NCBI GenBank assembly: GCA_045540015.1
Contig: JAZQGP010000013.1
Location: forward strand, 128,251 to 192,250
DNA from: Eubacteriales bacterium
GTDB lineage: Bacteria > Bacillota > Clostridia > Oscillospirales > CAG-382
Reading direction: 5' to 3'
DNA length: 64,000 bases
Both the position numbers and the translations under genes were made by a program. The notes below the pieces were generated by a model. That model had not been told where the DNA came from and did no database searches. It saw only the letters and a program-made list of their open reading frames with translations. This document shows positions 26,444-49,053 of the stretch, one piece after another (position 1 is the first letter of the stretch; each line of letters starts with the position of its first letter).

Positions 26444-27706
26444 TTATTTTTTTCGTTTGTTTGAAAGTTTTTCAAGGTTTTCCATTATTTCACTATTCAT
26501 TCTCTTAAATCTGTCTGAAGGTTTGGTTCGGCGCAAGTTTAATCCGTTATTATAGCGTTCAATAACTACTTCATATTGTCCCATAGCCGCCTTTACTGAA
26601 TCCTCCCAAGATAAATAAAGTTCTTCACTTGCACACTGTCCGACAGCGTGCATTTTTTCTTTTTTATCGTAAAGAGATATCAGACATTTGGATAAAGCTT
26701 CTGAGGATTCATCCACTAAAAATCCGTTTCTACCATCGGTCACTCCTTCAGCAGCACAACTGTTTTTTATTAACACTGCACCCAAGCTGCAAGCTGCCGC
26801 CTCTCGAACTACCAATCCATTTGTATCATAGGATGATGGAAACAAAAACAGATCGGCTCTGCAATACCAAGCACGAAGCACCTCACGATCCCGTATAGCA
26901 CCGGTGAAAATACATTTGTCTTTAATGCCCATCGTTTCTGTATAGTCTTTTATTTCATCCAAGTCATCACCGTCACCTATAAATACCATACGGAAATCCT
27001 TACCTTGCTTTGCGAGTAGAGCGAGAGCATCCACCGATAAGCGTATTCCTTTATACCACATCATACGCCCCACATAAAGGTAGATAGGCACATCTTTAGG
27101 AAGGCAGTACTTTTTTGTGGCTTCCTTGATTTTGGTGTCATATACTCGCTGACACGGAAGATCTACACCATTAGGCATTACAATATATTCCCCTTCGTAT
27201 CCAAGAGATCGTAGATTCTCTCCTGCACCATGGCTTACCGTCCATACCTCATCACAAGCGTTAATATTTGAAACAATTGCTTTTTTGCAAGCACTTTGTA
27301 AAGGCCTACTTTTTATTATATTGGCTATATCAACATCAAATTTAGTATGATATGTGAGAACAATCGGCACATTAAGCATTTGCCTCAGTTCTCTTGCCAT
27401 AAAGGTCGACATAATTGGGCAATGACTGTGCAGCAGTGATACATGGTACTGATTGGAGGCTCTTACAACCTCCGGTGAAAATGGAATTCCTGCCATATAT
27501 CCGTCCATCTTTCTAAAGGTAACACTCGGATATCGTACAATCGGAAAAGAATATTTGTTGTCTTCGGCTTGGGGATGCGAAGGAGTTACTACCATTGCTC
27601 CGACACCGTTATTTTTGATATTTTCGGCATAATTCAGTACTGTATTTGCCACACCGTCGATTTGAGACGGAAAAGAATCATTTAATAGACATATGGTTTT
27701 AAGCAT
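26444..27706 (-). CDS. GT4-family glycosyltransferase (glycolipid-synthase-like)
   Basis: GT-B fold with N-terminal DGVANTV and a C-terminal E-x7-E-like region (PSSYDTNGLVVREAAAC). It resembles diacylglycerol glucosyltransferases. Confidence 0.8.
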   Translation of the reverse strand: MLKTICLLNDSFPSQIDGVANTVLNYAENIKNNGVGAMVVTPSHPQAEDNKYSFPIVRYPSVTFRKMDGYMAGIPFSPEVVRASNQYHVSLLHSHCPIMSTFMARELRQMLNVPIVLTYHTKFDVDIANIIKSRPLQSACKKAIVSNINACDEVWTVSHGAGENLRSLGYEGEYIVMPNGVDLPCQRVYDTKIKEATKKYCLPKDVPIYLYVGRMMWYKGIRLSVDALALLAKQGKDFRMVFIGDGDDLDEIKDYTETMGIKDKCIFTGAIRDREVLRAWYCRADLFLFPSSYDTNGLVVREAAACSLGAVLIKNSCAAEGVTDGRNGFLVDESSEALSKCLISLYDKKEKMHAVGQCASEELYLSWEDSVKAAMGQYEVVIERYNNGLNLRRTKPSDRFKRMNSEIMENLEKLSNKRKK

Positions 27707-27860
27707 TTCATTTGTTGCCTCCTTTTCATATCATTGTAACATAAAAAAATAAACTGAAAAGAAACTAAAGAAACAAATATCATAACAGTGCTTTTTGCCG
27801 TCCTTGCCTTGACACTGGGTAGCATATAATATAAAATATTATAAACAAATTTTTGAATTA

Positions 27861-27892
27861 GTTTAGATTCAGTTTATTTATCAGGTATATAA
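27861..27892 (+). promoter_or_regulatory. operator-like motif (site a) plus -10 box upstream of the two-component operon
   Basis: GTTTAGATTCAGTTTATT, 8 nt, then TATAAT (27887-27892). Confidence 0.55.
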
Positions 27893-27922
27893 TGAAATAA
27901 CCGAAATAAAAGGAGATAAATT

Positions 27923-28597
27923 ATGTTTCACATTCTTGTTGTTGATGATGACCGTCATACCAGGATGCTTCTTGAAGCCATTTTGAAAGCGGAAAATTAT
28001 ACCGTATTCACTGCATCGAACGGAGAAGATGCCCTTAGTGTAATGGACAAAGAGCATATTGATCTTGTGGTGCTTGATATTATGATGCCGAAAATGGACG
28101 GCTATGAATTCACAAAGTTTCTTCGTGAAACGGATAATAATTTGCCAATCCTTATGGTATCTGCAAGACAGCTTCCTGCGGACAAGCGTAAGGGCTTCCT
28201 TGTGGGAACTGATGATTACATTACAAAGCCTATTGACGAAGAGGAAATGCTACTTCGTATAAAGGCTCTCCTTCGCCGTGCACAGATTGTTAACGAACAG
28301 AAGATGAAAATCGGCGAGGTTATTCTTGACTATAATTCCTTTTCCGTAAGCAGGAACGGAGAAACACAGGTATTGCCGCAAAAGGAGTTTCTGCTTCTGT
28401 ATAAGCTGCTTTCATACCCCGGACAGATTTTTACACGAATTCAGCTTATGGACGAAATTTGGGGAGCTGAAAGTGATACCGGGTGGGAAACTGTTACGGT
28501 ACACGTAGGACGACTTCGCAAACGCTTTGAAAACTGGAAGGAGTTTGAAATAGAGTCTGTAAGAGGACTCGGATACAGGGCGGTAAAGAGAGTATGA
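27923..28597 (+). CDS. OmpR/PhoB-family response regulator
   Basis: Receiver domain (VVDDD...DLVVLDIMMPKMDG) plus a winged-helix output domain (...VRGLGYRAV). Confidence 0.9.
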   Translation: MFHILVVDDDRHTRMLLEAILKAENYTVFTASNGEDALSVMDKEHIDLVVLDIMMPKMDGYEFTKFLRETDNNLPILMVSARQLPADKRKGFLVGTDDYITKPIDEEEMLLRIKALLRRAQIVNEQKMKIGEVILDYNSFSVSRNGETQVLPQKEFLLLYKLLSYPGQIFTRIQLMDEIWGAESDTGWETVTVHVGRLRKRFENWKEFEIESVRGLGYRAVKRV

Positions 28598-29655
28598 AAA
28601 AAGAAGAACGCAGACACAGACTGGCATTGACTTTGTTGGTTGCGGCATTTGTTTTCTGCATTATTCTCGTTGCCGTGATATTATCCGCAATTACAGTTTA
28701 TATTCTTTTGGATACGGGAGTTATTTCCACCATCGACGGAAGACCCGAGCCTATGCATACACTTATATTTATGGGACTTATCAGTCTTGTTATGGGCTCT
28801 GCGTTAACAGCGGTGATAAGTAAAATTTCCTTAAAGCCGGTAAACCGCATTATCGATCAGATGAACAGACTTGCTTCCGGAGATTTTAAGGCAAGACTGA
28901 AGATAGGAAAGCCGATAAATGCACATCCAACCTTTGTTGAAGTAACCGAGAGTTTTAACAAAATGGCACAGGAGCTTGAAAATACCGAAATGCTTCGCGG
29001 AGATTTTATAAACAACTTCTCACACGAATTCAAAACTCCCATAGTTTCAATTGCAGGCTTTGCAAAGCTTTTAAAACGCGGAAATCTCACCGAAGAACAG
29101 AAAAAAGAATATATTGACATAATTGAAGAGGAGTCAATGCGCCTTGCTGCAATGGCTACCAACGTTCTGAATTTGACAAAATACGAAAATCAAACAATTC
29201 TCACTGACGTAACAAGTTTTAATCTTTCCGAGCAGCTGCGTTCAAGCATCTTGTCTCTTGAAGGAAAATGGTCTAAAAAGAGTATTGATTTTAATCTTGA
29301 TTTCGGGGAACACATAATACAGGGAAACAAAGATATGCTCAAGCATGTCTGGATCAATCTTGTTGACAATGCCATTAAGTTCTCAAGCGGTGGCGGAACG
29401 GTCGAAATAGGAATAAGGGAACGAAGCGGATATTATGAAGTTTCCGTGCAGAATTGTGGCAGTGAAATTACACCCGAACAACAGAAAAAGATATTTAATA
29501 AATTCTATCAGGCAGATGAATCGCACGCATCTGAAGGTAACGGCGTTGGTCTTGCTCTTGTGAAGGGCATTTCTGAGCTTCACGGTGGAAAGGTTACCGT
29601 ACACTCCGAAGACGGCACTACTACCTTTACGGTAAGCCTGCCCAAAGAGCAATAA
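28594..29655 (+). CDS. sensor histidine kinase (two TM segments with a ~12-aa loop, HAMP, HisKA, HATPase)
   Basis: H-box FSHEFKTPI, N-box DNAIKFS, G-box GNGVGLALV. The very short extracytoplasmic loop suggests intramembrane sensing. Confidence 0.9.
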   Translation: MKKEERRHRLALTLLVAAFVFCIILVAVILSAITVYILLDTGVISTIDGRPEPMHTLIFMGLISLVMGSALTAVISKISLKPVNRIIDQMNRLASGDFKARLKIGKPINAHPTFVEVTESFNKMAQELENTEMLRGDFINNFSHEFKTPIVSIAGFAKLLKRGNLTEEQKKEYIDIIEEESMRLAAMATNVLNLTKYENQTILTDVTSFNLSEQLRSSILSLEGKWSKKSIDFNLDFGEHIIQGNKDMLKHVWINLVDNAIKFSSGGGTVEIGIRERSGYYEVSVQNCGSEITPEQQKKIFNKFYQADESHASEGNGVGLALVKGISELHGGKVTVHSEDGTTTFTVSLPKEQ

Positions 29656-29656
29656 A

Positions 29657-29689
29657 GCTTAGATTCAGTTTAGAAAAGCAGAATATTAT
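29657..29689 (+). promoter_or_regulatory. operator-like motif (site b) plus -10 box immediately after the kinase stop
   Basis: GCTTAGATTCAGTTTAGA, 9 nt, then TATTAT (29684-29689). Confidence 0.45.
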
Positions 29690-29731
29690 TAAAAATAGTG
29701 CCGCAAGTTTTTTATATTTCTCCTTATACGT

Positions 29732-29776
29732 AAAACAGACAGTTACGGTTTCATAGCTGTCTGTTTTGTTTTTTAT
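29732..29776 (+). terminator. intrinsic terminator
   Basis: Stem AAAACAGACAG / CTGTCTGTTTT followed by GTTTTTT. Confidence 0.65.
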
Positions 29777-29806
29777 ATATGCCGACAACTCAATTGAAAT
29801 AAAAAA

Positions 29807-29839
29807 GTTTCGTTTCAGTTTAGAAACAGATATTACACT
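29807..29839 (+). promoter_or_regulatory. operator-like motif (site c) plus -10 box upstream of the ABC exporter genes
   Basis: GTTTCGTTTCAGTTTAGA, 9 nt, then TACACT. Confidence 0.55.
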
Positions 29840-29871: not shown

Positions 29872-31623
29872 ATGATTCGTATCCTGAAGAAATTAAGGAA
29901 AAATGACGTGCTGTTGATTCTTGTTTCGGTCGTCTTTATCGCCGCTCAGGTATGGCTTGATTTGAAAATGCCCGACTATATGAGCGAGATCACGACTCTT
30001 GTGCAGACACCGGGCAATGAAATGCGGGACGTATTATTTGCCGGAGGAAAAATGCTTCTCTGTGCATTCGGCAGTCTTGTTTCGGCAGTCGCAGTTTCTA
30101 TTTTGTGCGCCAGAATTGCTACCGACTTCGGTGCTGATCTGCGTTCGGGGCTATATAACAAGGTTCTCTCATTTTCAAAGGGAGAAATCAGCAAGTTTTC
30201 CACCGCAAGTCTTATCACCCGAACCACCAACGATATTATGCAGGTACAAATGCTTATCATTATGGGCTTGCAGTCTATGATCAAGGCACCCTTGATGGGT
30301 ACTTGGGCGATTATTAAAATTGCGGGCAAAAACACCGAATGGACAATTACAACAGCCATAGCGGTCGCTTGCCTTTTGGTAGTTGTTGCACTGGCTATTG
30401 CGTTGATGCTTCCCAAATTCCGCAAGGTACAGAAGATGACTGATGACCTAAACCGTGTAACCCGAGAGAATCTCAGTGGTATCCGTGTTATCCGTGCCTA
30501 TAATGCCGAAGAATATCAACAGAGCAAATTTGATGCTACCAACACTGATCTTACAAAGGCACATTTGTTTACCGGCAGAGTTTCCGCGTTTATGATGCCT
30601 ACCATTCAAATGATTATGAGTGGACTCAGCCTTGCTATCTATTGGATCGGCGCAGCACTGATTGACAGTGCGGGAATGCAGGAAAAAATGGGGCTGTTTT
30701 CCGATATGATTGTATTTTCACAGTATGCAATGCAGGTCGTTATGGCGTTTATGATGCTGGTTATGCTCTTTATTATGCTTCCCCGTGCGTCCGTTTCGGC
30801 AAAGCGTATTCTTGAGGTTCTTGATACACCAATCTCTATTCATGACGGTGATGTTTCAGAAAGTAAAGCAAACCGTGAAGGTGAAATTGAATTCAAAAAC
30901 GTCAGCTTCCGTTATCCTGACGGCGAAGGTGATGTGATAGAGAACATCAGCTTTACGGCGAAAAAGGGAGAAACCGTTGCCATTATCGGCTCAACAGGAA
31001 GCGGAAAAACTACACTTATTGATTTGATTCCCCGTTTCTACGATGTAACAAGCGGCGAGGTACTCGTTGACGGCGTTAACGTAAAGAATTATAAATTAAA
31101 GACTCTTCGCAATAAAATCGGCTACGTTTCTCAAAAAGCTACCCTGTTTTCCGGAACGGTTCGCAGCAACGTTATCTTTGGCGATAGCGGACATAACCTC
31201 AATCAGAATTTTGTGGAATCCATTTACACCGCACAGGCGGCGGACTTTGTTGAGAAGATGGAAGGTAGCTATGACGGTGCCATTGCTCAGGGAGGTACAA
31301 ACCTTTCGGGTGGGCAAAAGCAGCGCCTTTCCATTGCCCGTGCTATCTGCCGCAGACCTGAAATTCTGATTTTTGACGATTCCTTCTCGGCACTTGACTA
31401 TAAAACAGATCGAGTGCTTCGCCAAAAAATGAATGAAGATTGCAAGAAGATAACCAAGCTGATCGTTGCACAGCGCATTGGTACCATTCGCGATGCAGAC
31501 CGCATCATTGTTCTGGACGAGGGCAAAATGGTCGGATACGGAAAGCATAAGGAGCTTATGGAAAACTGCGAGATTTACAGACAGATTGCCTTTTCACAAC
31601 TTTCAAAGGAGGAGCTTGCCTGA
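29872..31623 (+). CDS. ABC exporter, fused permease/ATPase (type I, heterodimer partner 1)
   Basis: Six-TM N-domain. Walker A GSTGSGKTT, signature LSGGQKQR, Walker B ILIFDDSFSALD. Confidence 0.9.
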   Translation: MIRILKKLRKNDVLLILVSVVFIAAQVWLDLKMPDYMSEITTLVQTPGNEMRDVLFAGGKMLLCAFGSLVSAVAVSILCARIATDFGADLRSGLYNKVLSFSKGEISKFSTASLITRTTNDIMQVQMLIIMGLQSMIKAPLMGTWAIIKIAGKNTEWTITTAIAVACLLVVVALAIALMLPKFRKVQKMTDDLNRVTRENLSGIRVIRAYNAEEYQQSKFDATNTDLTKAHLFTGRVSAFMMPTIQMIMSGLSLAIYWIGAALIDSAGMQEKMGLFSDMIVFSQYAMQVVMAFMMLVMLFIMLPRASVSAKRILEVLDTPISIHDGDVSESKANREGEIEFKNVSFRYPDGEGDVIENISFTAKKGETVAIIGSTGSGKTTLIDLIPRFYDVTSGEVLVDGVNVKNYKLKTLRNKIGYVSQKATLFSGTVRSNVIFGDSGHNLNQNFVESIYTAQAADFVEKMEGSYDGAIAQGGTNLSGGQKQRLSIARAICRRPEILIFDDSFSALDYKTDRVLRQKMNEDCKKITKLIVAQRIGTIRDADRIIVLDEGKMVGYGKHKELMENCEIYRQIAFSQLSKEELA

Positions 31624-33443
31624 TGGATAGCAAAAACAGAAATAACAGACCCGGTCCCGGCCCCGGACCTATGCCCGGCGGTCCCGAGAAGGCAAAGGAC
31701 ACCAAAGGCACCTGGGTTAAAATTATCAAGTATTGCCGCAAATATTGGACGGCAATGATTGTGGCAGTGCTTTCGGCAGGCATCGGTACGGTTCTCACCC
31801 TGCTTGGTCCGGATAAAATTTCAGACCTTACCAAAGTAATCGGTGAAGGTATTATGACCGGCATCGATATGGATAAGGTTGCTAAAATCGGCTTTACTTT
31901 GGTTGCATTTTATGCGTTTTCTTGGCTTCTTTCGGTATTACAGCAGTTCGTTATGAACCATGTAACGCAAAACGTATCAAAGAGCCTGCGTACCGATATT
32001 TCTAAGAAAATCAACCGTTTGCCAATGTGGTACTACAATACCACCTCCACAGGTGATGTGCTTTCCCGTGTCACCAATGACGTAGATATGATTGCGCAAT
32101 CGCTGAATCAGAGCGTAGGAACTTTAGTGCATTCGATTACCCTTTTTGTCGGCTCTATTATTATGATGCTTGTAACCGACGTTACAATGACGATCGCTGC
32201 GATTCTTTCCGTGCTTATCGGCTTCATTTTGATGGGTGCTATTATGGGGCGTTCCCAAAAATACTTCTCCCGTCAGCAAAAGGCTCTGGGTGCAGTAAAC
32301 GGTCAGATCGAAGAGATCTACTCCGGTCAAACCATTGTCCGTGCCTATAATGCTGAGGATAAGGCAAAAGAGGATTTTAACAAAATGAATTTCCATTTGC
32401 GTGACTGCGGTTTCAAGGCACAGTGCATTGCAGGTACAATGATGCCTATTATGGGCTTTATCGGCAACTTTGGCTATGTGGTCGTATGTGTTGTCGGTGC
32501 AATGCTGACGATGAACGGCAATATCGGTTTTGAGGTTATCGTTGCCTTTATGATGTATGTTCGTTACTTCACGCAGCCTCTTTCCCAAATGGCACAGGCA
32601 GCTCAGTCCCTACAGTCTGCCGCAGCCGCCGGTGAGCGTGTGTTTGAATTCCTTGAAGCAGAAGAAATGGCGGATGAAAGCAGTAAGACAACCGTTCTGG
32701 GCGATGTAAAAGGCACAGTTGAATTCGACCATGTAAGGTTTGGCTACGAGGACTCCGATAAAATAATTATCAAAGATTTTTCTGCCAAAGCAACGCCCGG
32801 TCAGAAGATTGCCATTGTCGGACCTACGGGAGCGGGTAAAACTACTCTTGTAAATCTGCTTATGCGTTTTCATGAGATTCAGAGTGGTGAAATCCGTATC
32901 GACGGCACGCCCACATCGGCTCTTACCCGCGAAAACGTGCATTCACAGTTCTGTATGGTCTTACAGGATACCTGGGTATTTGAAGGAACGGTGCGTGAAA
33001 ATCTGATGTATTGCTCTGAGGGTGCCACCGAGGAAAAAATGATTGCCGCTTGCAGGGCAGTTGGTCTTGACCATTTTATTCACACACTTCCCAAGGGATA
33101 CGACACTGTTCTTTCCGACAGCACCAACCTTTCGCAGGGGCAAAAACAACAGCTTACCATTGCCCGTGCTATGATTGCCGATAAGCCGATGCTGATTCTG
33201 GACGAGGCGACAAGCTCGGTTGATACAAGAACGGAGCTGCAGATTCAAAAGGCTATGGATGAACTGATGAAGAACAGAACCTCGTTTGTTATTGCACACA
33301 GACTTTCTACCATTAAAAACGCCGACCTTATTCTTGTTATCAAGGATGGCGATATTATTGAAAGCGGCAACCACGAAGAGCTTCTCTCACAGAACGGCTT
33401 CTATGCCGATCTATACAACAGCCAGTTTGAACAGGCATCGTAA
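31623..33443 (+). CDS. ABC exporter, fused permease/ATPase (heterodimer partner 2)
   Basis: Walker A GPTGAGKTT, signature LSQGQKQQ, Walker B LILDEATSSVD. Start overlaps the partner-1 stop. Confidence 0.9.
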   Translation: MDSKNRNNRPGPGPGPMPGGPEKAKDTKGTWVKIIKYCRKYWTAMIVAVLSAGIGTVLTLLGPDKISDLTKVIGEGIMTGIDMDKVAKIGFTLVAFYAFSWLLSVLQQFVMNHVTQNVSKSLRTDISKKINRLPMWYYNTTSTGDVLSRVTNDVDMIAQSLNQSVGTLVHSITLFVGSIIMMLVTDVTMTIAAILSVLIGFILMGAIMGRSQKYFSRQQKALGAVNGQIEEIYSGQTIVRAYNAEDKAKEDFNKMNFHLRDCGFKAQCIAGTMMPIMGFIGNFGYVVVCVVGAMLTMNGNIGFEVIVAFMMYVRYFTQPLSQMAQAAQSLQSAAAAGERVFEFLEAEEMADESSKTTVLGDVKGTVEFDHVRFGYEDSDKIIIKDFSAKATPGQKIAIVGPTGAGKTTLVNLLMRFHEIQSGEIRIDGTPTSALTRENVHSQFCMVLQDTWVFEGTVRENLMYCSEGATEEKMIAACRAVGLDHFIHTLPKGYDTVLSDSTNLSQGQKQQLTIARAMIADKPMLILDEATSSVDTRTELQIQKAMDELMKNRTSFVIAHRLSTIKNADLILVIKDGDIIESGNHEELLSQNGFYADLYNSQFEQAS

Positions 33444-33454
33444 GGAGATTTTTT

Positions 33455-34054
33455 ATGAGTCATAAATATATAGCAATTGAGCGAGAATACGGCAGCGGCG
33501 GCACGGAAATTGCCCGCCGCCTTGCCGAAGAATGTTCCGTTTCCTGTTACGGTCAGGAAATTCTTGAGGCAGTATCCAAAGAGTTTGGCGTTTCCATTGA
33601 AGAGATTCAAAAAAGCGAGGAAAACGTAACCAACAGCTTTCTTTATACTCTCTATGCCATCGGACAAATTCAGTCCGGAAATACGAGCGTTTTAACACAA
33701 GAAGGTAAACTCTTCGTAGCTGAACAAGAATTTATCCGCAAATCTGCTTTAAAAGGGTCAGCCATATATCTCGGGCACTGTGCATCGGAAGCACTTGACG
33801 GACTCGATGTGGTTCGCGTTTTTATTCGTTGCTCGGATAAGGATATAAAGGCAAAGCGTATTGAAGAGGAGTACGGCATACCTGCCGGAGAATGTGAAAG
33901 CGCCCGCAAGCGTTTTGATAATAAGCGCAGTAAATACTACTTTGCAAACACCGCAAAGAAATGGGAGGACCTTACAAATTACGACATTGTTCTGGACAGT
34001 GCAACTCTTGGAATTGACGGTTGCGTTTCCGTTTTGAAATGTATTATCGGGTAG
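33455..34054 (+). CDS. cytidylate-kinase-like family protein
   Basis: N-terminal IAIEREYGSGGTEIARRLAE, typical of the CMK-like AAA family common in Clostridia. Confidence 0.7.
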   Translation: MSHKYIAIEREYGSGGTEIARRLAEECSVSCYGQEILEAVSKEFGVSIEEIQKSEENVTNSFLYTLYAIGQIQSGNTSVLTQEGKLFVAEQEFIRKSALKGSAIYLGHCASEALDGLDVVRVFIRCSDKDIKAKRIEEEYGIPAGECESARKRFDNKRSKYYFANTAKKWEDLTNYDIVLDSATLGIDGCVSVLKCIIG

Positions 34055-34084: not shown

Positions 34085-34495
34085 ATGAAAAGATGGTTTC
34101 AAAATTTAGGTGAGAAAATGCAAAGGTGGATGTATGGCAGATACGGATACGATGAGCTATCGAAGTTTCTGACAATATGTGCTTTTGTGCTTATCCTTCT
34201 TTCCGACGTTTCACCTATATTTAATACCTTGGCTCTTATTATGCTCATATGGTCGATGTTCCGCATTTATTCGAGAAATACTGCAAAAAGACAAGGTGAA
34301 CGTCAGAAATATCTGCAGATAAAGACAAAAATCAAGCAATTCTTTTTGAGGCACAGAAATATGTTCAGAGAACGCAAGACTCACATTTATTTCAAATGCC
34401 CGTCATGCAAGATTTATCTCAGAGTTCCCAAAGGCAAAGGAACAATAGAAATAACCTGCCCCAAGTGCAAAAACAAAGTTACCAAAAAAACATAA
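34085..34495 (+). CDS. membrane protein with C-terminal zinc ribbon (paralog 1)
   Basis: Two TM segments, then YFKCPSCKIYLRVPKGKGTIEITCPKCKNK. Paralogous to 38676-39098. Confidence 0.65.
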   Translation: MKRWFQNLGEKMQRWMYGRYGYDELSKFLTICAFVLILLSDVSPIFNTLALIMLIWSMFRIYSRNTAKRQGERQKYLQIKTKIKQFFLRHRNMFRERKTHIYFKCPSCKIYLRVPKGKGTIEITCPKCKNKVTKKT

Positions 34496-34504
34496 GGAGT
34501 TATT

Positions 34505-35338
34505 ATGTTTGGATACATACAGGCAAATACCTGCGACCTTTCAACAGATGAAAAGCTGAGATATAAATCGGTATATTGCGGAATATGTCACTCTATAGGT
34601 GACCGTTATGGAAATATTGCACGAATGGGACTAAGCTATGACCTGACGTTTCTTGCCCTGCTATGCTCATCTCTTTATGAGCCTGCTTGTGAATGTACTA
34701 AACGCAGGTGTGTGATTCACCCTTGCAAAAGTCACAGTTGTATTAACAATAAGTATATTGACTACGCAGCAGACATGACGGTTGCCCTGATGTATCATAA
34801 ATGTCTCGATGACTGGAATGACGATAGGAACATTGCAATGAAATGCTATGCCTCTCTGCTTTTAAGGTCATACAACACAATAAAAAAAGCTTGGCCTGAG
34901 CAATGCCGGTGTATCGAACGGGAGCTTGAAACCATTTCCGGTATAGAAAGAAATGATAACGGCGATGCCGATGCCGCATCAAAAAGCTTTGGCAGGCTTA
35001 TGGCATGTGTGTTTGCTCCGGAAAAGGACAATTGGAAGTCGTATCTTGAAGACATCGGATATGGACTTGGTAGGTATATATATATTGCAGATGCCGCAGT
35101 GGATCTGAAAAAAGATATAAAAAAAGGCAGCTATAATCCGTTAAAAGCAACTATGCCACAGCCCGAATTGGTAAAAAGCGCACTTAAAATTATGCTGGGA
35201 GAATCCTCAAAAGCATTTGAGGCATTGCCGCTTGAAGAAGATCTGGGGCTGCTAAGAAACATTTTGTATTCCGGGGTCTGGATAAAATACAACAGAGGAA
35301 TGCAAAAAAGGAAAGGAAGAAAAGTAAATGGTGAGTGA
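34505..35338 (+). CDS. DUF5685-like protein
   Basis: N-terminal MFGYIQANTCDLSTDEKLRYKSVYCGICHSIG...YDLTFLALL resembles the DUF5685 family, judged by recollection of the family pattern. Confidence 0.55.
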   Translation: MFGYIQANTCDLSTDEKLRYKSVYCGICHSIGDRYGNIARMGLSYDLTFLALLCSSLYEPACECTKRRCVIHPCKSHSCINNKYIDYAADMTVALMYHKCLDDWNDDRNIAMKCYASLLLRSYNTIKKAWPEQCRCIERELETISGIERNDNGDADAASKSFGRLMACVFAPEKDNWKSYLEDIGYGLGRYIYIADAAVDLKKDIKKGSYNPLKATMPQPELVKSALKIMLGESSKAFEALPLEEDLGLLRNILYSGVWIKYNRGMQKRKGRKVNGE

Positions 35339-36155
35339 TCCTTATCAGGTGCTTGGTGTTTCCAGAAATGCCACACAGGACGAAATCAAAAAAGCATATC
35401 GCAGAAAGGCAAAGGAATACCATCCCGACCTTCATCCGAATGACCCCACGGCAACGCAAAAAATGAACGAGGTAAATGTTGCTTACGATATGCTTATGAA
35501 TCCCGATAAATATGAGGCAAAACGTGCGCAGCAGCAACATCAGTCACAGAACCGTGGCTACGGTGGTTATGGAAACGGCGGATATTCGGGAAACTATAAC
35601 GGAAACCGTTACGGAGGAGGATATTCATCGGGCGGACAAGGCAGCTCTTCCGGCAGCAATAATTCCTCCGGCGGCTATCAGGGGCCGGGCGGATGGTCAA
35701 GCGATTTTGGAGGCTTCGGCTTTGAAGACATATTCGGATTTGGTTTTGAGCAGCAGAACGTATCATTAAATCCTCAATATGAATCGGGAGACAGTCCGCA
35801 GATACGAAGAGTGGTTGACGAGATCAACAACAGGCGTTATCAGGCTGCAATCGGAATATTGACATACATTCCGAGCTCCGGAAGAAATGCAAGATGGTTC
35901 TATTTGTCAGCACTTGCAAATCACGGTCTCGGAAACACTGTACAGGCAATCGATCATATGCAAAAAGCGGCACAGATGGAACCGGGAAATAACAATTATC
36001 GCCTGATATTACAAAAATTCAAAAAAGCTGAGCAAACTTATGAAAATAATGCTCAGGGCTTCAATATGAACATTATGAATATGCAAAAATTATGTTTTGG
36101 CTGTATGGCGGCTCAGTGTCTCTGCGGTCCGTTCGGATGCCTCAGGTGTATTTAA
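35328..36155 (+). CDS. J-domain protein with G/Y-rich linker, TPR-like region and Cys-rich C-terminal tail
   Basis: J domain DPYQVLGV...YHPDL. No CxxCxGxG zinc-finger domain. Tail [20 protein letters not shown]. Confidence 0.8.
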
Positions 36156-36171
36156 TGAAAGGAATAAAAAC

Positions 36172-37950
36172 ATGGGAAAAACGATAGGTATAGATCTTGG
36201 AACAACAAACAGCTGTGTGTCGGTAATTGAAGGCGGAAAGCCTGTTATAATACCGAACGAACACGGTGGAAGAACAACACCGAGCATCGTTGCCTTTACA
36301 CAAAACGGCGAACGGCTTGTGGGAGACACAGCAAGGAGGCAGGCAGTGGCAAATGCATCACGCACTGTTTCTTCGGTAAAACGCCACATGGGAACAGATT
36401 GGCATATAAATATCGATGGCAAAAGCTTCACTCCCCAGGAAATAAGTGCTATGATTCTCAGAAAATTAAGAAAGGATGCAGAGGAGTATCTCGGAACGGA
36501 GGTTACAGATGCTGTCATCACCGTTCCTGCATATTTTAACGACATCCAAAGACAAGCAACCAAGGACGCCGGAAGAATTGCGGGGCTTAATGTAAAACGA
36601 ATAATTAACGAGCCTACAAGTGCTGCCCTTGCTTACGGGCTTGACAACGGCACACCGCAGAAAATTATGGTTTATGACCTTGGAGGCGGAACCTTTGACG
36701 TATCAATAATTGAAATCGGTGAAGGCGTTATAGAGGTGCTTGCTACCAACGGTGACAATAATTTGGGCGGTGACGATTTTGATGCACGCATAACAGAACA
36801 TCTTCTCTCAGAAATCAAAAGACAGTATAAAGTTGATTTAAGATGTGATTTTTCTGCACTTAAGCGTGTGCAAGAGGCAGCAGAGCAAGCTAAAAAAGAG
36901 CTTTCTTCTACTGATAATTCGTATATTTCTCTGCCGTATCTCACACAGACAGGAAGCACGGTTGTGAACTTTGAATACACACTGACACGTTCTAAATTCA
37001 ACGAGCTTACACGCGATCTTGTTGACCGCACTTCAGGTCCTGTGCAAAATGCACTTAATGATGCCGGTATCGCACCTACCGAGCTTGGTAAGGTTATCCT
37101 TGTCGGAGGCTCAACACGTATTCCTGCCGTTCAGGAAAAGGTTCGTCAGCTTACCGGCATTGTTCCCTCAAAGAATATAAATCCCGATGAGTGCGTGGCA
37201 CAGGGGGCTGCGATTCAGGGTGATACACTTTCGGGAGGTGCTTTAACACTTTCGGGTTCTGATGGTAGCATCCTTCTTCTTGACGTAACGCCGCTGAGTC
37301 TGTCAATCGAAACGGTAGGCGGTGTCGCAACCCGTCTTGTCGAAAGAAATTCCACCTTGCCGATTCACTATTCACAGGTTTTCTCCACGGCAGCACCATT
37401 CCAGAGCAGTGTTGAAATCCACGTTTTGCAGGGTGAGCGCCCGATGGCAAAGGATAACAAGACCATCGGTAAATTTAAACTGAATGGAATAAAAAAAGCA
37501 CCTGCCGGTGTACCACAGATCGAAGTAACTTTTGACATTGATGCCAACGGCATTCTTAAGGTTTCGGCAAAAGATCTTGATACCGGCAAGGAGCAGTCAA
37601 TTACCATTTCCAATAACGAAAAAATGTCCGATGCCGAAATTGAGCAAGCCATTCGTGACGCTGAACAATATGCGGCGCAGGATAATATCCGCCGTGAAGC
37701 GCTGACTGTAACAAACGAAGCAAGTCATACCCTTGCCAAAGCAGAACAGGCATTGAACAAAGTCGGTAAAAAGCTTGAAAAGGAAGAGAAAAAGCAAATA
37801 AAATCTGACATTTCCGCTCTTCGCAAGCTTCTTGTGAAAACAAAACCCGAAAAGATGTCAAGCACCGAAATATCTGATATACGCTCAGCAATGGTACGTC
37901 TTGAGGCATCAAGTGCCAATGCACAAAGTATGGCACAGGAGGAGCAATAA
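36172..37950 (+). CDS. Hsp70/DnaK-family chaperone (not in an hrcA-grpE-dnaK-dnaJ context)
   Basis: [22 protein letters not shown], and substrate-binding domain [20 protein letters not shown] at 36172; the track TTG start 36097 overlaps the J-protein gene. Confidence 0.9.
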
Positions 37951-39873: not shown

Positions 39874-39886
39874 ATACAGTCTTTTG

Positions 39887-39913
39887 AAGAGCCTCCAGGT
39901 GAGGCTCTTTTGT
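39887..39913 (+). terminator. intrinsic terminator
   Basis: Stem AGAGCCTC / GAGGCTCT with loop caggt, then TTTTGTT. Confidence 0.65.
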
Positions 39914-39931: not shown

Positions 39932-39964
39932 GTTTCGTTTCAGTTTAGATTACCTTGTTATACT
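39932..39964 (+). promoter_or_regulatory. operator-like motif (site d) plus -10 box upstream of the flavodoxin-like gene
   Basis: GTTTCGTTTCAGTTTAGA, 9 nt, then TATACT. Confidence 0.55.
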
Positions 39965-40020: not shown

Positions 40021-40527
40021 ATGATGAAATACGAAATAGCATACCTGAGTGTTTCGGGTAACACAGAAAAGCTTGCACACGGAATTGCCGACAGATTTCC
40101 GCACGAGGACACCTTTGTCACAGATTTATCCTGTGAAAGTATTACGAAGAAAGCGGATATATATATCATCGGCTTCGGTGTTGATAAAGGAACCATTCCT
40201 TTGAGGATTATCGAAGCACTGGAAGAAATTGAGGGCAAGCCGTATATGTTCTTTATAACAGGCTGTATGGAGCCGACAGAGGCATATAAAGAAAATGTCG
40301 AGCAGAAGCTTTTGCCGTTTTTGCCGGATGACGGAGATTACAGAGGTATCTTTATGTGCCGTGGAAAAATTTCAGATGAAGCGAGAAGTGCATTGAATAA
40401 AAAGCTTTATGAAGCACCTGAAAATCCGTCACTTGCCGAAATTTTACGTCAGGCAAAGCTGTCAGAAAACCATCCCGACAGTGTGGATGTTGAAAATGCA
40501 TACGCATTTGTCAGAGAGCGGATATAG
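40021..40527 (+). CDS. flavodoxin-family protein
   Basis: N-terminal IAYLSVSGNTEKLA FMN-binding loop. ATG at 40021 follows GGAAGGAG. Confidence 0.7.
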   Translation: MMKYEIAYLSVSGNTEKLAHGIADRFPHEDTFVTDLSCESITKKADIYIIGFGVDKGTIPLRIIEALEEIEGKPYMFFITGCMEPTEAYKENVEQKLLPFLPDDGDYRGIFMCRGKISDEARSALNKKLYEAPENPSLAEILRQAKLSENHPDSVDVENAYAFVRERI

Positions 40528-40574
40528 GCTTTCACCTATGAATACAAAAAACACAGGAACGAGAGGTAAATACC

Positions 40575-42401
40575 ATGCGTGAAGTGAAAAACCCAAAAAA
40601 ACCGTTGATGTTTTATTACGGTATTGCATTGCTTGTAATTATACTGTTTAATTCCATAGTAATGCCTATGATTGCCGAAGGACGTGTCAAGGAGGTTGAT
40701 TACGGAACCTTTATGGCAATGACTGAAGACAAAAATATTGGTCTTGTTAAAATCAGCGAAAGCGATAATCAGATTACCTTTACAGATAAAACACGAGAAA
40801 AAATATATAAAACGGGAATGATGAATGATCCGGAGATCACATCAAGGTTATATGAAGCAGGAGCAAGCTTTAAGGGAGAAATTATTGAAGAACCCAACTT
40901 TCTTGTAAGCTTTATTATGACATGGATACTGCCCATGGTGCTGTTTTTCGGGATAGGACAATTTATGTCAAAAAAGATGATGGATAAAGCAGGCGGCGGC
41001 TCGGGTGCCATGATGTTCAATATGGGTAAATCCAACGCCAAGGTCTATGTAAAATCCGAAAACGGCATAAAATTTGACGATGTTGAAGGCGTTGATGAGG
41101 CAGAGGAGAGCCTGCAGGAGGTTGTGGACTATCTTCACAATCCCAAGAAATACACCGAAATAGGAGCGCAAATGCCTAAAGGTATTCTTCTTGTAGGACC
41201 TCCCGGCACAGGTAAAACAATGCTTGCTAAGGCGGTTGCGGGCGAAGCAAATGTACCCTTCTTTTCAATGAGCGGCTCTGAATTTGTTGAAATGTTTGTA
41301 GGTATGGGTGCTTCAAAGGTGCGAGATCTCTTCAAGCAGGCTAAAGAAAAAGCTCCCTGCATTGTCTTTATTGATGAGATTGACGCTATTGGAGGAAAAA
41401 GAGCATCAGGTGGCATAAGCGGAGGACATGATGAGCGTGAGCAGACATTAAATCAGCTCCTCACCGAAATGGATGGCTTTGAGGGTAACAGCGGTGTTAT
41501 GATTCTTGCGGCAACCAACCGTCCCGAATCTCTTGACCCTGCACTTACCCGTCCCGGACGTTTTGACAGGCGTGTTCCCGTTGAGCTTCCCGATCTTAAG
41601 GGCAGAGAGGCAATTCTCAAGGTGCACTGCAAAAAAATCAAAACTGCTCCCGACATTGACTTTACACAGGTTGCACGCATGGCTTCGGGCGCATCCGGTG
41701 CCGAGCTTGCCAACATAGTAAACGAAGCAGCTTTGCGAGCTGTACGTGCCGGCAGAAAGGCAGCGACACAGGCAGATCTTGAGGAAAGCATAGAGGTTGT
41801 TATTGCGGGTTATCAAAAAAAGAATGCTATTCTCACCGACAAAGAAAAAATGGTGGTGGCATATCACGAAATAGGTCATGCGCTTGTTGCAGCAAAGCAG
41901 ACAAACTCTGCTCCCGTTCAAAAAATTACAATAGTTCCACGTACCTCTGGTGCTCTCGGTTACACAATGCAGGTTGATGAGGGAAATCATTACCTTATGA
42001 GTAAGGAAGAAATCGAAAATAAAATCGCAACCTACACAGGCGGAAGAGTGGCAGAGGAAATCGCCGTAGGCTACATTACAACAGGAGCTTCAAATGACAT
42101 TGAACAGGCAACAAGACTTGCCCGTTCCATGATTACACGTTTCGGTATGAGTAATAAATTTGGCATGATGGCTCTTGAAACTGTTACAAATCAGTATCTT
42201 GGCGGTGATGCTTCGCTTGCCTGCTCTGCGGAAACACAGACGGAAATAGACCGTCTTGCATCTGAGCTTATAAAACAACAATATGAAAAAGCAAAGAAGA
42301 TTATAACGGAAAATAAAACAAAGCTTGATGAGCTTGCAAAATATCTTTATACACACGAAACCATCACCGGAGAAGAATTTATGAATATTCTTAATAGCTG
42401 A
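40575..42401 (+). CDS. ftsH: ATP-dependent zinc metalloprotease FtsH
   Basis: Walker [12 protein letters not shown] region, and zinc site HEIGHAL. Confidence 0.95.
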
Positions 42402-42415
42402 AAGGAGCAGAATAA

Positions 42416-43312
42416 ATGAGAAAAGTAAAAATTATTACCGATTCCTGTGCCGACTTAAGTCCTAAGCAATTGAAGAAATATGACATAGACTATGTAAGAA
42501 TGTCAACGGTTCTTGACGGAGTTGAAAGCCCCGCACTTCTTACCTGGACAGAAAAGGAGGCACACGAGCTTTATGAAACAATACGGAAAGGAAAGCGTGT
42601 CACCACAGCTCAGGTTTCGGTCGAGGAGTTTAATGTAACCTTTAAAAAATATCTGAGCCACGGCTACGATATTGTATATATCGGCTGTTCGTCAAAGCAA
42701 TCGGGCTCTGTAAATACAGGGCGAATAGTTGCCGGGAAGCTTGTAGGACTATATCCCGAAGCAAAAATTTTCTGCATAGATTCACTTAATGCGAGTATCG
42801 GTGAAGGAATGCTTGCGATAGAGGCGGCAAAATGGGCATCGAAGGGCATAAACGCCGAGGAAATAGCCGAATATGTTACAGAGCTTCGAAAAAAAGTACA
42901 GCAATTTGTAACAGTACATACTCTTGAGCATCTGAAAAAGGCAGGGCGTGTAACGACCTCCTCTGCTTTTCTCGGAAATCTTATGGGTATAAAGCCCATA
43001 CTTGTTTCAGATGTCAACGGTGTACAGACCGCACTGAAAAAGGTCAAGGGGCGCAAAGCCTCCTTTAAGGAAATAGTATCCTTGCTTAAGGAAAATATTA
43101 CGGATGCCGAAAAACAGACGGTGTATATTGCACATGCCGACTGCGACAAAGCGGAGATAGATGAGCTGACAGCACTTGTGAAACAGGAGATTGGCTGCAG
43201 AAGTGTTGAGGTTTGTCTTATAGGTCCCATAATCGGTGCCTCAATCGGTCCGGATGCTGTGGGAGTTTGGGCATTTGGAAAACAAGTAACACATAAGGCT
43301 GAGGTAAAATAA
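42416..43312 (+). CDS. DegV family fatty-acid-binding protein
   Basis: VKIITDSCADLS N-terminus; ~298 aa. Confidence 0.85.
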   Translation: MRKVKIITDSCADLSPKQLKKYDIDYVRMSTVLDGVESPALLTWTEKEAHELYETIRKGKRVTTAQVSVEEFNVTFKKYLSHGYDIVYIGCSSKQSGSVNTGRIVAGKLVGLYPEAKIFCIDSLNASIGEGMLAIEAAKWASKGINAEEIAEYVTELRKKVQQFVTVHTLEHLKKAGRVTTSSAFLGNLMGIKPILVSDVNGVQTALKKVKGRKASFKEIVSLLKENITDAEKQTVYIAHADCDKAEIDELTALVKQEIGCRSVEVCLIGPIIGASIGPDAVGVWAFGKQVTHKAEVK

Positions 43313-43313
43313 A

Positions 43314-44954
43314 ATGAATAATATTTCGGTGCTTGACGGCTTCACCTTTGCAAAGATGGTAAAGTCGGGGTGTAATAATCTGCGGACTCATATGCAGACA
43401 GTAAACAACTTAAATGTATTTCCCATTCCCGACGGTGATACGGGCAGCAATATGCTAATGACTATCATAGGCGGAGCAGATAATGCCGGTGCAGGTACAA
43501 AAAGTATCAGTGAAACATCAAGGCGCATATCCGACGGAATGCTTCTGAGTGCAAGAGGAAATTCCGGTGTTATTCTGTCTCAGATTTTTGAGGGGATTGC
43601 AGGCGGCTTTGAAGGCATGGAAGAGGCAGGAAATCAGGAAATAATCAAGGCTCTGCAGACAGGAGTGAGGCATTCCTACAGGGCTGTTATGGATCCTTGT
43701 GAGGGAACAATGCTGACGGTTATGCGTTGTGCCTGCGAATACGCCGGCGGTAAAGCCGCACCATCAATACGGGAGCTGTTTTCCAACTTTTTATATGAAG
43801 CTAAACGAACTCTTGAAAAAACGCCTGATATGCTTCCCGTTCTGAAAAAAGCGGGGGTTGTGGATTCCGGCGGAGCAGGTCTTGTATATATTTTCGAAGG
43901 AATGCTTGGCGTACTTACAGGAGAACAGAGTGAAAGCGATTTTCAGACTGTTGCAGTAAATGATGATATGATTGATCTTAATCTGTTCACAGAGGACAGT
44001 GTTTTGAAATACGGCTATTGTACAGAGCTTTTATTGAGGCTTCAGAACTGTAAAACAGAGCCCGGAAGCTTTGACGTAGCTACTCTTACCGAATATCTCA
44101 AGGGTATCGGAGACAGCGTTGTTGCATTCAAAACCGGAAGTATTGTAAAAATACATATTCACACAATGACTCCGGACAGAGTTCTTGCATTCTGTCAAAG
44201 GTATGGAGAATTCCTGAAAATCAAGATTGAAAATATGTCACTTCAGCACAACAGTGCGGCTCTTGAAGGAATAAATGTTACCGTAAAGCCGCAAGGTGAA
44301 CGTAAAGCATACGCTGTTGTAACGGTAGCATCGGGCGACGGTATCAAAAAGCTTTTCTCTGAAAGAGGTGCAGACGTGATTGTGGATGGCGGACAGACAA
44401 TGAACCCGTCGGCAGAGGATTTTCTCCAAGCCTTCAATGAGGCAAATGCCGACACAATTTTTGTACTGCCAAATAACAGCAATATCATCCTCACCGCAAA
44501 GCAGGCTGCCGGAATTTACACCGATTCTGAAATTTATGTGCTTGAAAGCAAAACAATTGGCGACGGTTATGCTGCTATTTCCATGTTATCGACGGAATCG
44601 GGAAATACAAAGCAAATCGTACAGGAAATGACGGATGCAATGCAAAATGTTGTTACTGCTTGTATTTCAAAAAGTATAAAGGACACAGACGAAGTACGAG
44701 CAGGAGATTATATTGGCTTTGTGGGAAAGAATATTCTTTCGGCAAAGGAAAACCGTCTTGATGCCGTTAAGAGTACTGCTGATGCACTTGGAGCTTCGGA
44801 ATATGATATTTGCCTTATAATACGCGGAAAAAGCACAGATGAAGCCGAAGCCTTGCTTGCACAAGCATATGTAAAGTCGAAATGTCCCTTGACCGAGACT
44901 TATTTAATTGACGGAATGCAGGACATATATGACTACATTCTGATTTTAGAATGA
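43314..44954 (+). CDS. DAK2 domain fusion protein (YloV-like)
   Basis: N-terminal DhaL-like FPIPDGDTGSNM; ~546 aa architecture. Confidence 0.85.
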   Translation: MNNISVLDGFTFAKMVKSGCNNLRTHMQTVNNLNVFPIPDGDTGSNMLMTIIGGADNAGAGTKSISETSRRISDGMLLSARGNSGVILSQIFEGIAGGFEGMEEAGNQEIIKALQTGVRHSYRAVMDPCEGTMLTVMRCACEYAGGKAAPSIRELFSNFLYEAKRTLEKTPDMLPVLKKAGVVDSGGAGLVYIFEGMLGVLTGEQSESDFQTVAVNDDMIDLNLFTEDSVLKYGYCTELLLRLQNCKTEPGSFDVATLTEYLKGIGDSVVAFKTGSIVKIHIHTMTPDRVLAFCQRYGEFLKIKIENMSLQHNSAALEGINVTVKPQGERKAYAVVTVASGDGIKKLFSERGADVIVDGGQTMNPSAEDFLQAFNEANADTIFVLPNNSNIILTAKQAAGIYTDSEIYVLESKTIGDGYAAISMLSTESGNTKQIVQEMTDAMQNVVTACISKSIKDTDEVRAGDYIGFVGKNILSAKENRLDAVKSTADALGASEYDICLIIRGKSTDEAEALLAQAYVKSKCPLTETYLIDGMQDIYDYILILE

Positions 44955-44964
44955 GGAATGACCT

Positions 44965-49043: not shown

Positions 49044-49053
49044 GAGGTTATAT

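Follow-up and report, generated by a model that had tools for sequence, protein, structure and literature searches.

The 64,000-nt stretch of DNA analysed here (the window; positions 128,251 to 192,250 of the forward strand of contig JAZQGP010000013.1, assembly GCA_045540015.1, Eubacteriales bacterium) contains six copies of an 18-nt promoter element, referred to below as the box. The box is probably the binding site of the response regulator (RR) encoded beside it at 27923-28597, which would act on it by class II activation and control a membrane-lipid regulon. The evidence comprises the fixed placement of the box relative to the -10 hexamer, its co-occurrence with the RR and the partner histidine kinase (HK) in other species, and the kinds of gene that lie behind it. 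All coordinates are those of the window unless a related locus (L number) is named.

Copies of the box in the window

The 18-mer GTTTCGTTTCAGTTTAGA was re-found exactly at the three positions at which the original prediction had placed it, 29807, 39932 and 55881, all on the + strand. The two variants it had listed were also seen, with three mismatches at 29657 (+) and four at 27861 (+; GTTTAGATTCAGTTTATT). Every copy had been reported to lie on the + strand. A sixth copy, GTTTCTTTTCAGTTTATT, lies on the opposite (minus) strand, at 27765-27748, with N9 and TACAAT (27738-27733) behind it. The gap to the -10 had been given as 9 nt at four sites and 8 nt at the fifth; read base by base, it is 9 nt at all five, and TAnnnT stands exactly 9 nt past all six copies. 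The hexamers of the + strand sites (TATTAT, TACACT, TATACT, TATAAT and TATAAT) were as previously listed. The 9-nt spacers of these five sites read TATCAGGTA, AAAGCAGAA, AACAGATAT, TTACCTTGT and AAACAGCTT.

With up to three mismatches allowed, the 18-mer gave six matches in the window against 0.16 expected, and none of 100 shuffles reached six. The core TTCAGTTTA occurs seven times in the window, six of them within the motif. In a position weight matrix (PWM) scan of the window, six sites scored strongly (23-35 bits) and a weak remnant was picked up at 34020. When the window was re-sampled under a first-order Markov model, just 0-5 PWM matches arose, even at 8 bits.

Site A (27861-27893, +; GTTTAGATTCAGTTTATT, N9, TATAAT) is the predicted autoregulatory promoter of the RR-HK genes. 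Its PWM score is the lowest of the sites (23.0 bits), in agreement with the earlier statement that the RR's own promoter carries the weakest variant. Site B (29657-29689, +; GCTTAGATTCAGTTTAGA, N9, TATTAT; 24.8 bits) begins one base past the HK stop codon. Site C (29807-29839, +; exact motif, N9, TACACT; 34.3 bits) starts 150 nt beyond site B and is the predicted promoter of an ABC transporter operon. Site D (39932-39964, +; exact motif, N9, TATACT; 35.3 bits) lies directly 3' of a terminator-like hairpin (approximately 39885-39909), and site E (55881-55913, +; exact motif, N9, TATAAT; 33.9 bits) lies 3' of a hairpin at 55853-55881. The minus-strand copy (27748-27765; GTTTCTTTTCAGTTTATT, N9, TACAAT; 24.1 bits) is the predicted promoter of a divergent GT4 glycosyltransferase gene. 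The degenerate remnant GTTGCGTTTCCGTTTTGA (34020-34037, +; 15.2 bits), upstream of a Zn-ribbon gene, has no -10.

Survey of the box in other species

One genome per species (185,579 species) was scanned with the pattern GTTTMGWTTCAGTTTAGA-N9-TANNNT. This motif-anchored scan gave at least 118 loci, nearly all from Clostridia, each of which was examined as an 8-kb block. The lineages represented among the matches listed were Lachnospiraceae, Oscillospiraceae/Ruminococcaceae, Christensenellales, Monoglobales-like and Acetivibrionales-like. A few of these matches belong to cultured strains, among them Lachnospiraceae bacterium AC2029 (JNLK01), Ruminococcus sp. Marseille-P6503 (NZ_UWPB01), Lachnospiraceae bacterium 48-33 (JBCLQI01) and Bariatricus sp. 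HCP28S3_D3. At least one recurrent target family was present in 111 of the 118 blocks among the matches listed.

Two matches labelled Bacteroidota (L052, a Segatella copri bin, and L116, a Muribaculaceae bin) carry Clostridia-type RR/HK orthologues (approximately 75% identity) and DegV genes, and are probably mis-binned contigs. In a Treponemataceae bin (L009), the RR, the HK and the target genes had no match on the contig; this locus cannot be judged because a mere 50 nt separate its box from the end of the 4-kb contig.

The motif-anchored pattern itself fixed N9, TAnnnT and a near-consensus sequence. As sequence and N9 were thereby imposed, a further 11 loci were fetched solely via HK homologues (63-89% identity). 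Together with the window these loci form the protein-anchored set (262 kb), which was scanned with the 18-nt PWM alone. This gave 47 sites of at least 17 bits, and all 11 fetched loci have at least one. A site stands directly upstream of the RR gene in 10 of the 11. Comparison with the gene tables placed the sites in intergenic DNA, barring slight overlaps that involve the end of a gene, a questionable 42-aa gene call in L126 and, in L129, an RR gene call that is over-extended. The sixth window site was confirmed by L119 (HK 89% identical), which has the exact consensus at the same place, before its GT4 gene; L126 also has a site there.

Architecture of the box promoters

The box is made up of two 7-bp direct repeats, GTTT(C/A)G(T/A) and GTTTAGA, with TTCA between them and a period of 11 bp. 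The consensus is GTTT(C/A)G(T/A)TTCAGTTTAGA, N9, then the -10. The box spans approximately -39 to -22 in constant orientation, occupying the -35 position 9 nt from a sigma-A-type -10. Within the protein-anchored set, TAnnnT was found at exactly N9 in 45 of 47 sites, at N8 in one, and was absent from one. The best -35 match at a spacing of 16-18 nt had three of six bases in 41 of the 47 sites, and three or fewer in 43. An extended -10 TG was present in 12/47 sites, and a purine stood 7 nt past the -10 in 37/47.

For the motif-selected set, the columns that were not selected by the pattern showed W at positions 0, 19 and 20, TGn ahead of the -10, T-A-A within the -10 and a purine at the presumed start. 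Information content was approximately zero in the flanks beyond the motif and the -10 (172 unique sites), in keeping with the original observation that the flanks are unrelated and that the element is no dispersed repeat. Tandem direct repeats of approximately 11 bp at the -35 position, with a fixed distance and orientation to the -10 and no good -35, constitute a class II (pho-box-type) architecture. It had been proposed that TTTCG/TTTAG half-sites 11 nt apart replace the -35; the comparative evidence supports this and gives the direct repeat as GTTTCGT-TTCA-GTTTAGA, with an 11-nt period.

Paired boxes on opposite strands, overlapping to approximately 30 nt apart, were seen in L006 (3371/3402), L042 (5848/5879), L106 (5236/5255) and L124 (9051/9059 and 11230/11247). 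These pairs drive divergent genes, for example a radical-SAM/SPASM gene and a diacylglycerol (DAG) kinase gene, and their arrangement suggests shared or competing occupancy by the regulator.

The two-component system and its link to the box

The RR (27923-28597, +) is an OmpR/PhoB-family protein with a receiver domain (Pfam Response_reg, 1.4e-31) and a winged helix (Trans_reg_C, 4e-18). Its predicted phospho-acceptor is D52. It matched the structures of RegX3, MtrA, DrrD and PhoP over its full length, and the nearest solved structures are generic OmpR-family members. Neither the RR nor the HK reached the cutoff of any NCBIfam equivalog (PhoB, MtrA, VanR, YycF/WalR, CseB, OmpR, CpxR; PnpS, VanS, WalK and others). 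The best match of the RR was PhoB (176.5 bits versus a cutoff of 296.2) and that of the HK was PnpS (188 versus 400). In a set of 65 orthologues whose overall divergence reaches 39%, invariance is at least 95% both in the C-terminal DNA-binding region of the RR (LPQKEFLLLYKLL...IFTRIQLMDEIWG...GWETVTVHVGRLRKRF) and in the recognition-helix region TVTVHVGRLRKRF. This invariance fits that of the box.

The HK (28594-29655, +; 353 aa) has the Pfam arrangement HAMP-HisKA-HATPase. Two N-terminal hydrophobic segments are joined by a loop of approximately 15 aa, and HAMP begins at residue 75. In a Kyte-Doolittle profile with 19-residue windows, values exceed 1.6 for windows that begin at residues 7-29 and 53-62, giving spans of approximately 7-47 and 53-80. 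By hydropathy the protein is an intramembrane-sensing kinase, with two helices and a short loop. Conservation in 119 homologues was 0.89 for DHp, 0.76 for HAMP and lowest, at 0.36, for the loop, a pattern that speaks against a binding site for an extracellular ligand.

An RR orthologue (55-91% identity) and/or an HK orthologue was present in 75 of the 118 8-kb blocks among the matches listed. For 29 of the 63 RR orthologues in the motif-selected blocks, a site with up to five mismatches was found 50-87 nt upstream of the start codon; with the selected sites set aside, approximately 1% of control segments have such a site. Many of the variants upstream of RR genes lie outside the reach of the search pattern, for example GTTTATTTTCAGTTTAGT and GTTTTGATTCAGTTTATC. 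Taken with the presence of the box in 11/11 HK-selected loci, before the RR in 10, these counts make the adjacent RR by far the best candidate for the binding protein, as the original prediction had proposed.

A sigma-70-like promoter, TTGACA-17-TAAAAT, was recognised at 27809-27837 (+) by consensus match alone (11 of 12 positions). It is likely to be the basal, RR-independent promoter of the RR-HK operon.

Recurrent targets

The first gene behind each box was clustered, and the clusters were named by Pfam and re-mapped by tblastn, giving 212 sites in the listed loci. The most frequent first genes encode the RR (40 sites), DegV (18), an ABC transporter (18-19), FtsH (14), FakA (11) and the Zn-ribbon protein (11). 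Rarer first genes were RelA_SpoT, acyltransferases, PlsA-like, radical-SAM/SPASM, CmpB-like, CrtO-like, flavodoxin, DAG kinase, PlsX, PlsY and acyl-CoA synthetase fusions. PLD-like (cardiolipin-synthase-like), patatin phospholipase, VTT/DedA and ClpP genes were further targets among those initially unnamed. The usual lipid chains were DegV-FakA-PlsY-PlsA-like, FakA-PlsX-DegV and FtsH-DegV-FakA-PlsY; the other usual chains were ABC1-ABC2-CMK-like, Zn-ribbon-DnaJ-Hsp70 and RR-HK-X.

The same box was thus found with the same kinds of target across Lachnospiraceae, Oscillospiraceae/Ruminococcaceae, Christensenellales and others, which looks like a conserved regulon for membrane lipids and quality control. 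Two parts of the regulon first proposed, the two-component system (TCS) itself and the ABC pair with its CMK-like gene, were recurrent. The exporter-centred scope of that proposal was not retained, as FtsH and lipid genes (FakA, DegV/FakB, PlsX/Y/C, CdsA, PlsA-like, DAG kinase and others) dominate, and the GT4 site had been overlooked.

Proposed mechanism and alternatives

The pho-box/CiaR-like layout, the constant phasing and the lack of a usable -35 point to class II activation by a phosphorylated RR dimer. Most likely the dimer binds the box head-to-tail and recruits RNA polymerase. At site A this would add positive autoregulation of RR-HK to the basal promoter. The HK probably senses something in or at the membrane; from the membrane-lipid target genes, we infer a signal tied to membrane state or lipid supply. 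The regulon predicted within the window would comprise the TCS itself and the divergent GT4 glycosyltransferase gene; the MsbA-like ABC operon, probably extended by the Zn-ribbon/DUF5685/DnaJ/Hsp70 module; the cluster of 14 genes that serves to activate exogenous fatty acids and to make phospholipids, plus FtsH; a candidate small RNA of approximately 75 nt with a CU-rich (anti-Shine-Dalgarno-like) tract; and the site E promoter (55881).

Several points weigh against this reading. Sequence and co-occurrence carry the whole case. For the 118 motif-selected loci, logo and spacing statistics are circular, since the scan demanded N9, TAnnnT and a near-consensus sequence, and the sole unbiased set, the 12 protein-anchored loci, is small and phylogenetically related. 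The source genome was scanned within the window only, and the motif scan yielded at least 118 loci. No downstream family was found for 48 of the 212 sites. Operon limits (14 genes in one case, ABC to Hsp70 in the other) were set by spacing alone. The box (-39 to -22) also overlaps the territory of the polymerase and could act as an operator, and the extended -10 TG in 12/47 promoters may allow firing without an activator. The last two points would suit an arrangement in which the same RR binds the same site and represses by occupying the -35 and spacer, the signal de-repressing the genes; the separate consensus-like promoter of the RR-HK operon would suit it as well. However, orientation and distance to the -10 are fixed in 45/47 unbiased sites, which is expected for an activator that contacts polymerase and needless for steric repression. 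Most of the promoters lack both a -35 and a TG and would hence be weak unaided, the architecture is that of the pho box and of CiaR-activated promoters, and autoregulatory sites are typical of positive feedback. Repression is accordingly rated unlikely.

Activation by the RR could also serve a different role, that of a Bce-like module (TCS plus ABC exporter) for detoxification of drugs or antimicrobial peptides, with the lipid genes as secondary passengers. ABC exporter genes stand next to the TCS in the window as they do in many species, the HK belongs to the intramembrane-sensing kinases, which are often paired with transporters, and the box of L125 precedes an ABC_tran+FtsX pair. Yet an ABC gene is the first target at just 18-19/212 sites, whereas lipid genes (DegV, FakA, Pls, PlsA-like) and FtsH are commoner. 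Many RR-HK loci are without a nearby ABC gene, with PlsX, DegV-FakA or FtsH following RR-HK, for example, and the exporters are half-transporters (MsbA-like) in which the transmembrane domain and nucleotide-binding domain (TMD-NBD) are fused, not the BceAB type. We regard this role as improbable. Recognition of the box by another transcription factor or an alternative sigma factor, with the proximity of the TCS incidental, is very improbable. The co-localisation of RR and box is correlative, but the orthologues in 75 of the 118 listed blocks and the box in all 11 HK-selected loci, usually right before the RR, speak against a coincidence; an 11-bp-period direct repeat is the signature of an OmpR/PhoB winged-helix dimer, and the sigma-A-like (TATAAT-type) -10 argues against an alternative sigma. 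Finally, three copies identical over 18 nt might be a dispersed repeat, a remnant of a mobile element or a product of chance. That explanation was rejected, its probability being close to nil: the flanks carry no information, only 0.16 chance matches are expected, and the position is conserved at orthologous genes in many species.

Genes at the TCS, GT4 and ABC loci

The GT4 glycosyltransferase gene (26444-27706, -; Pfam Glycos_transf_1, Glyco_transf_4) encodes a candidate glycolipid synthase. The best NCBIfam match of its product was alpha-monoglucosyldiacylglycerol synthase, below cutoff. An AGGAGG ribosome-binding site lies between the TACAAT -10 and the GT4 start.

The region 29872-34054 (+) encodes two TMD-NBD ABC half-transporters and a Cytidylate_kin2-family protein (Pfam). 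The two ABC genes occupy 29872-33443, and their products (583 and 606 aa) are ABC_membrane + ABC_tran fusions for which MsbA models scored best, below cutoff. Conservation of the motif at orthologous ABC genes had been suggested as a check; the order motif-ABC1-ABC2(-CMK-like) was found in many species. 3' of the ABC pair follow, in order, the Cytidylate_kin2 protein, a Zn-ribbon membrane protein, DUF5685, a DnaJ-domain protein and Hsp70. In L125 (11155-14741) the post-HK box precedes a 145-aa membrane protein and a BceAB-like pair (ABC_tran + FtsX permease), with no MsbA-like pair. It therefore seems that the regulon can exchange its transporter arm.

The last four genes of the window series (34085-37950, +; Pfam) form a module that recurs behind the motif elsewhere. 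The module (Zn-ribbon protein of approximately 136 aa, DUF5685, DnaJ and an Hsp70 paralogue) was seen behind a box in the window and in L036, L076, L103, L119, L126, L127 and L128, often with a RelA_SpoT small alarmone synthetase-like gene 3' of it. The module resembles a chaperone system anchored in the membrane. In other species a full motif stands before the orthologous Zn-ribbon gene itself, and the remnant at 34020-34037 is read as the decayed box of the module in the window.

The lipid cluster and site E

A tight co-directional cluster of 14 genes extends from 40021 to 55845 (+), with intergenic gaps of at most 48 nt. Its Pfam assignments are, for genes 1-7, flavodoxin, FtsH, DegV/FakB, FakA, PlsY, M50-like and PDZ, and for genes 8-14, a PlsC-type acyltransferase, GT8, CDP-alcohol phosphatidyltransferase, CdsA, a 1408-aa BcrAD_BadFG+DUF2229 protein (PlsA-like), an alpha/beta hydrolase and an acyl-ACP thioesterase. 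Terminator-like sites within the cluster were not above chance, and hairpins flank it, one just before site D and one just before site E. The cluster would form one transcription unit. The flavodoxin at 40021 had been named as a target; the box is present there as claimed, but the flavodoxin is merely the first gene of this cluster.

The 1408-aa protein is encoded by a gene of 4227 bp (49886-54112) and contains BcrAD_BadFG and DUF2229 domains. Characterised single-gene plsA genes are 4248-4920 bp long and encode 2-hydroxyacyl-CoA dehydratase family members (PMC12838417, PMC9702350). PlsA of the single-gene kind has about 1400 aa, and in it BcrAD_BadFG activase modules are fused to a dehydratase-like part. 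Size and domain family thus fit a putative PlsA-like plasmalogen synthase. In the window, L126, L127 and L131, the Flavodoxin_3 (BilS-like) gene (40021-40527 in the window) shares its transcription or its regulation with FtsH and the PlsA-like protein, and relatives have a rubredoxin gene 3' of the GT4 gene. The flavodoxin and rubredoxin may supply low-potential electrons to the activase portion of this putative enzyme.

A 49-aa open reading frame (ORF) at 56016-56165 (+), behind site E, had been predicted to encode a membrane peptide under the control of the box. It had no homologue among 5.8 billion proteins or in related loci and no Pfam match, and is doubtful as a gene; it was dropped as a target. 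Downstream of site E, tblastn and blastn gave no match in related loci apart from the box itself. The DNA 3' of site E (56170-59070) contains short unconserved ORFs, a DUF3846 protein, an AraC-family regulator and others. As a guess, the region past site E may be an insertion that separates the promoter from its original target.

A candidate small RNA after the kinase gene

Site B would not serve the exporter. It has its own -10 (TATTAT), which is followed by approximately 35 nt containing UAUUUCUCCUUAUAC and then by a hairpin, with no ORF. The predicted product is an RR-dependent small RNA of approximately 75-80 nt (29696-29775, +), with an unpaired CU-rich tract (UAUUUCUCCUUAUAC), a strong terminator hairpin of 16 bp (29730-29769) and a U-run. 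The same post-HK layout (box, N9, -10, predicted transcript of 63-87 nt, CU-rich unpaired tract and terminator) was found in L119, L126, L127, L128 and L131, usually followed by a second box 120-150 nt further on.

A covariance model was built from six sequences (the window, L119, L126, L127, L128 and L131). It found a copy in L068 (4163-4243; 'Ca. Ornithomonoglobus', HK 58% identical) at 48 bits (E 2.7e-6). This copy starts right past a box and -10, and a second box then precedes clpP. The layout is thus present at seven loci, six of them other than the window, from at least six lineages. Weaker matches to the model (19-33 bits) were rejected as ordinary terminators beside boxes; the terminator dominates the model. 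The loci L121, L129 and L130 have neither a post-HK box nor a CU tract. In a seven-way alignment the transcript region is better conserved than the post-terminator spacer, and the hairpin shows compensatory changes.

A gathering-threshold Rfam scan of the whole window was empty, and permissive scans of 29640-29800 and 55850-56250 gave sub-threshold noise. A duplex-energy target search against the start regions of the window was non-discriminating, since the tract pairs with any Shine-Dalgarno sequence. When metagenomes were scanned for the layout (box, -10, gap, CAGACAGTTA), the one match had no full box and was rejected as chance. On balance, site B may drive a genuine small RNA, with a likelihood that we place just short of even.

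The post-HK terminator hairpin, AACAGAC(A/G)GTTATG...CATAGC(T/C)GTCTGTT, was found in the window (29730-29769), L119, L128, L068, L129 (11075-11109) and L130 (approximately 3590-3625). Its sequence is unusually conserved across lineages whose HKs are 58-89% identical, even without a preceding small-RNA promoter. Intrinsic terminators normally drift in sequence, so this hairpin may function beyond termination.

Comparison with known systems

The Escherichia coli pho box is 18 bp long, with two 7-bp direct repeats and a 4-bp spacer (11-bp period), and replaces the -35 at a distance of approximately 10 bp from the -10, on its upstream side. Its binding protein is PhoB, an OmpR/PhoB winged-helix dimer that recognises CTGTCAT repeats, acts as an activator, autoregulates its own operon and responds to phosphate via PhoR/Pst. 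The window system shares the 7-bp repeats, the 11-bp period and the replacement of the -35, but differs in sequence, signal and regulon. The RR, at 176 bits against the PhoB equivalog cutoff of 296, is therefore not PhoB.

CiaR promoters have the form TTTAAG-N5-TTTAAG-N10-(-10), and the cia-dependent small RNAs (csRNAs) were predicted from a regulator box in an intergenic region together with a terminator (PMC3091779). Shifted by one base, the box reads GTTTCG-N5-GTTTAG-N10-(-10), exactly the CiaR geometry (PMC3091779). A further likeness to CiaRH is the combination of envelope genes with short terminated RNAs bearing a tract complementary to the Shine-Dalgarno sequence, represented here by the candidate RNA. 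In contrast, the recognition helix of CiaR is VVEVYVSKVRKKL and that of the window RR is TVTVHVGRLRKRF, the half-site sequences differ, CiaRH targets htrA, dlt and lic where the window system targets lipid-synthesis genes, and the window HK has a loop of just ~15 aa. Membership of the CiaRH/csRNA family was rejected on the helix, on the box (GTTTCG-N5-GTTTAG) and on the lack of a csRNA match in Rfam.

The SaeR site is the direct repeat GTTAA-N6-GTTAA, also with an 11-bp period. SaeRS of Staphylococcus aureus (PMC5539427) resembles the window system in its intramembrane-sensing kinase, which is approximately 350 aa long and has two helices joined by a very short linker, and in its OmpR-type RR. 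In S. aureus, Fak and cellular free fatty acids modulate SaeRS, which controls a virulence-factor regulon (PMC5539427). Fak there acts on the TCS, whereas in the window system the box stands before fakA and degV themselves. SaeR was not among the listed PDB matches of the RR at E <= 1e-20, a result of little weight as the presence of a SaeR chain in the library was unchecked.

HexRK of Clostridioides difficile and YrkPQ of Bacillus subtilis are TCSs that lie next to, and control, a glycolipid glycosyltransferase operon (PMC10128005). HexRK is alike in its adjacent glycolipid glycosyltransferase and in a regulon for membrane and envelope biogenesis. It differs in that HexK has an extracytoplasmic domain of approximately 120 aa against the ~15-aa loop of the window HK, and the HexR regulon is small (hexSDF), with no reported binding motif (PMC10128005). 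Orthology with HexRK was rejected because the kinase architecture differs.

A Bce-type module (BceRS-BceAB) was likewise rejected, the window transporters being TMD-NBD fusions; ABC_tran + FtsX stands behind the box in one related locus (L125). BceAB-type transporters have a separate ATPase and an FtsX-family permease with a large extracellular domain. Among known regulators of lipid genes, FapR and FabT, known from work on bacilli and cocci, are repressors of the one-component type whose ligands are malonyl-CoA or acyl-ACP, and FapR controls plsX and plsC. DesK uses its transmembrane segments to sense the membrane's physical state, and its partner DesR is of the NarL type with essentially one target. 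All of these control lipid genes, but none is an OmpR-type activator with a box at fak, pls, plsA and ftsH.

Full-text literature searches, of incomplete coverage, found neither the motif string nor TCS control of fak/pls/plsA in Clostridia, and we know of no TCS that directly controls these genes. The mechanism is of a familiar kind; the system, the box and the regulon appear to be undescribed so far.

Significance

To our knowledge, next to nothing has been described of the way in which the dominant gut anaerobes control membrane lipid synthesis, the incorporation of host or dietary fatty acids, and plasmalogen production. We see about an even chance that gut Clostridia (Lachnospiraceae, Oscillospiraceae/Ruminococcaceae, Christensenellales and relatives) share one intramembrane-sensing TCS that is the master activator of membrane biogenesis via a single invariant box. 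It would govern FakA/FakB, PlsX/PlsY/PlsC/CdsA, plasmalogen synthesis with flavodoxin, glycolipids, lipid remodelling, the MsbA-like exporter and quality control (FtsH, ClpP, membrane-anchored DnaJ/Hsp70), with a csRNA-like small RNA in one sub-clade. If so, that small RNA would add a post-transcriptional arm in the sub-clade concerned and, if real, would extend to Clostridia the design of a TCS plus an anti-Shine-Dalgarno small RNA known from streptococcal CiaRH. The analysis provides a sharply defined box, a candidate regulator and a predicted regulon over several orders. The box may help to annotate and predict regulons in metagenome-assembled genomes of uncultured organisms, by the thousand, and box promoters are candidate biosensors of membrane stress.

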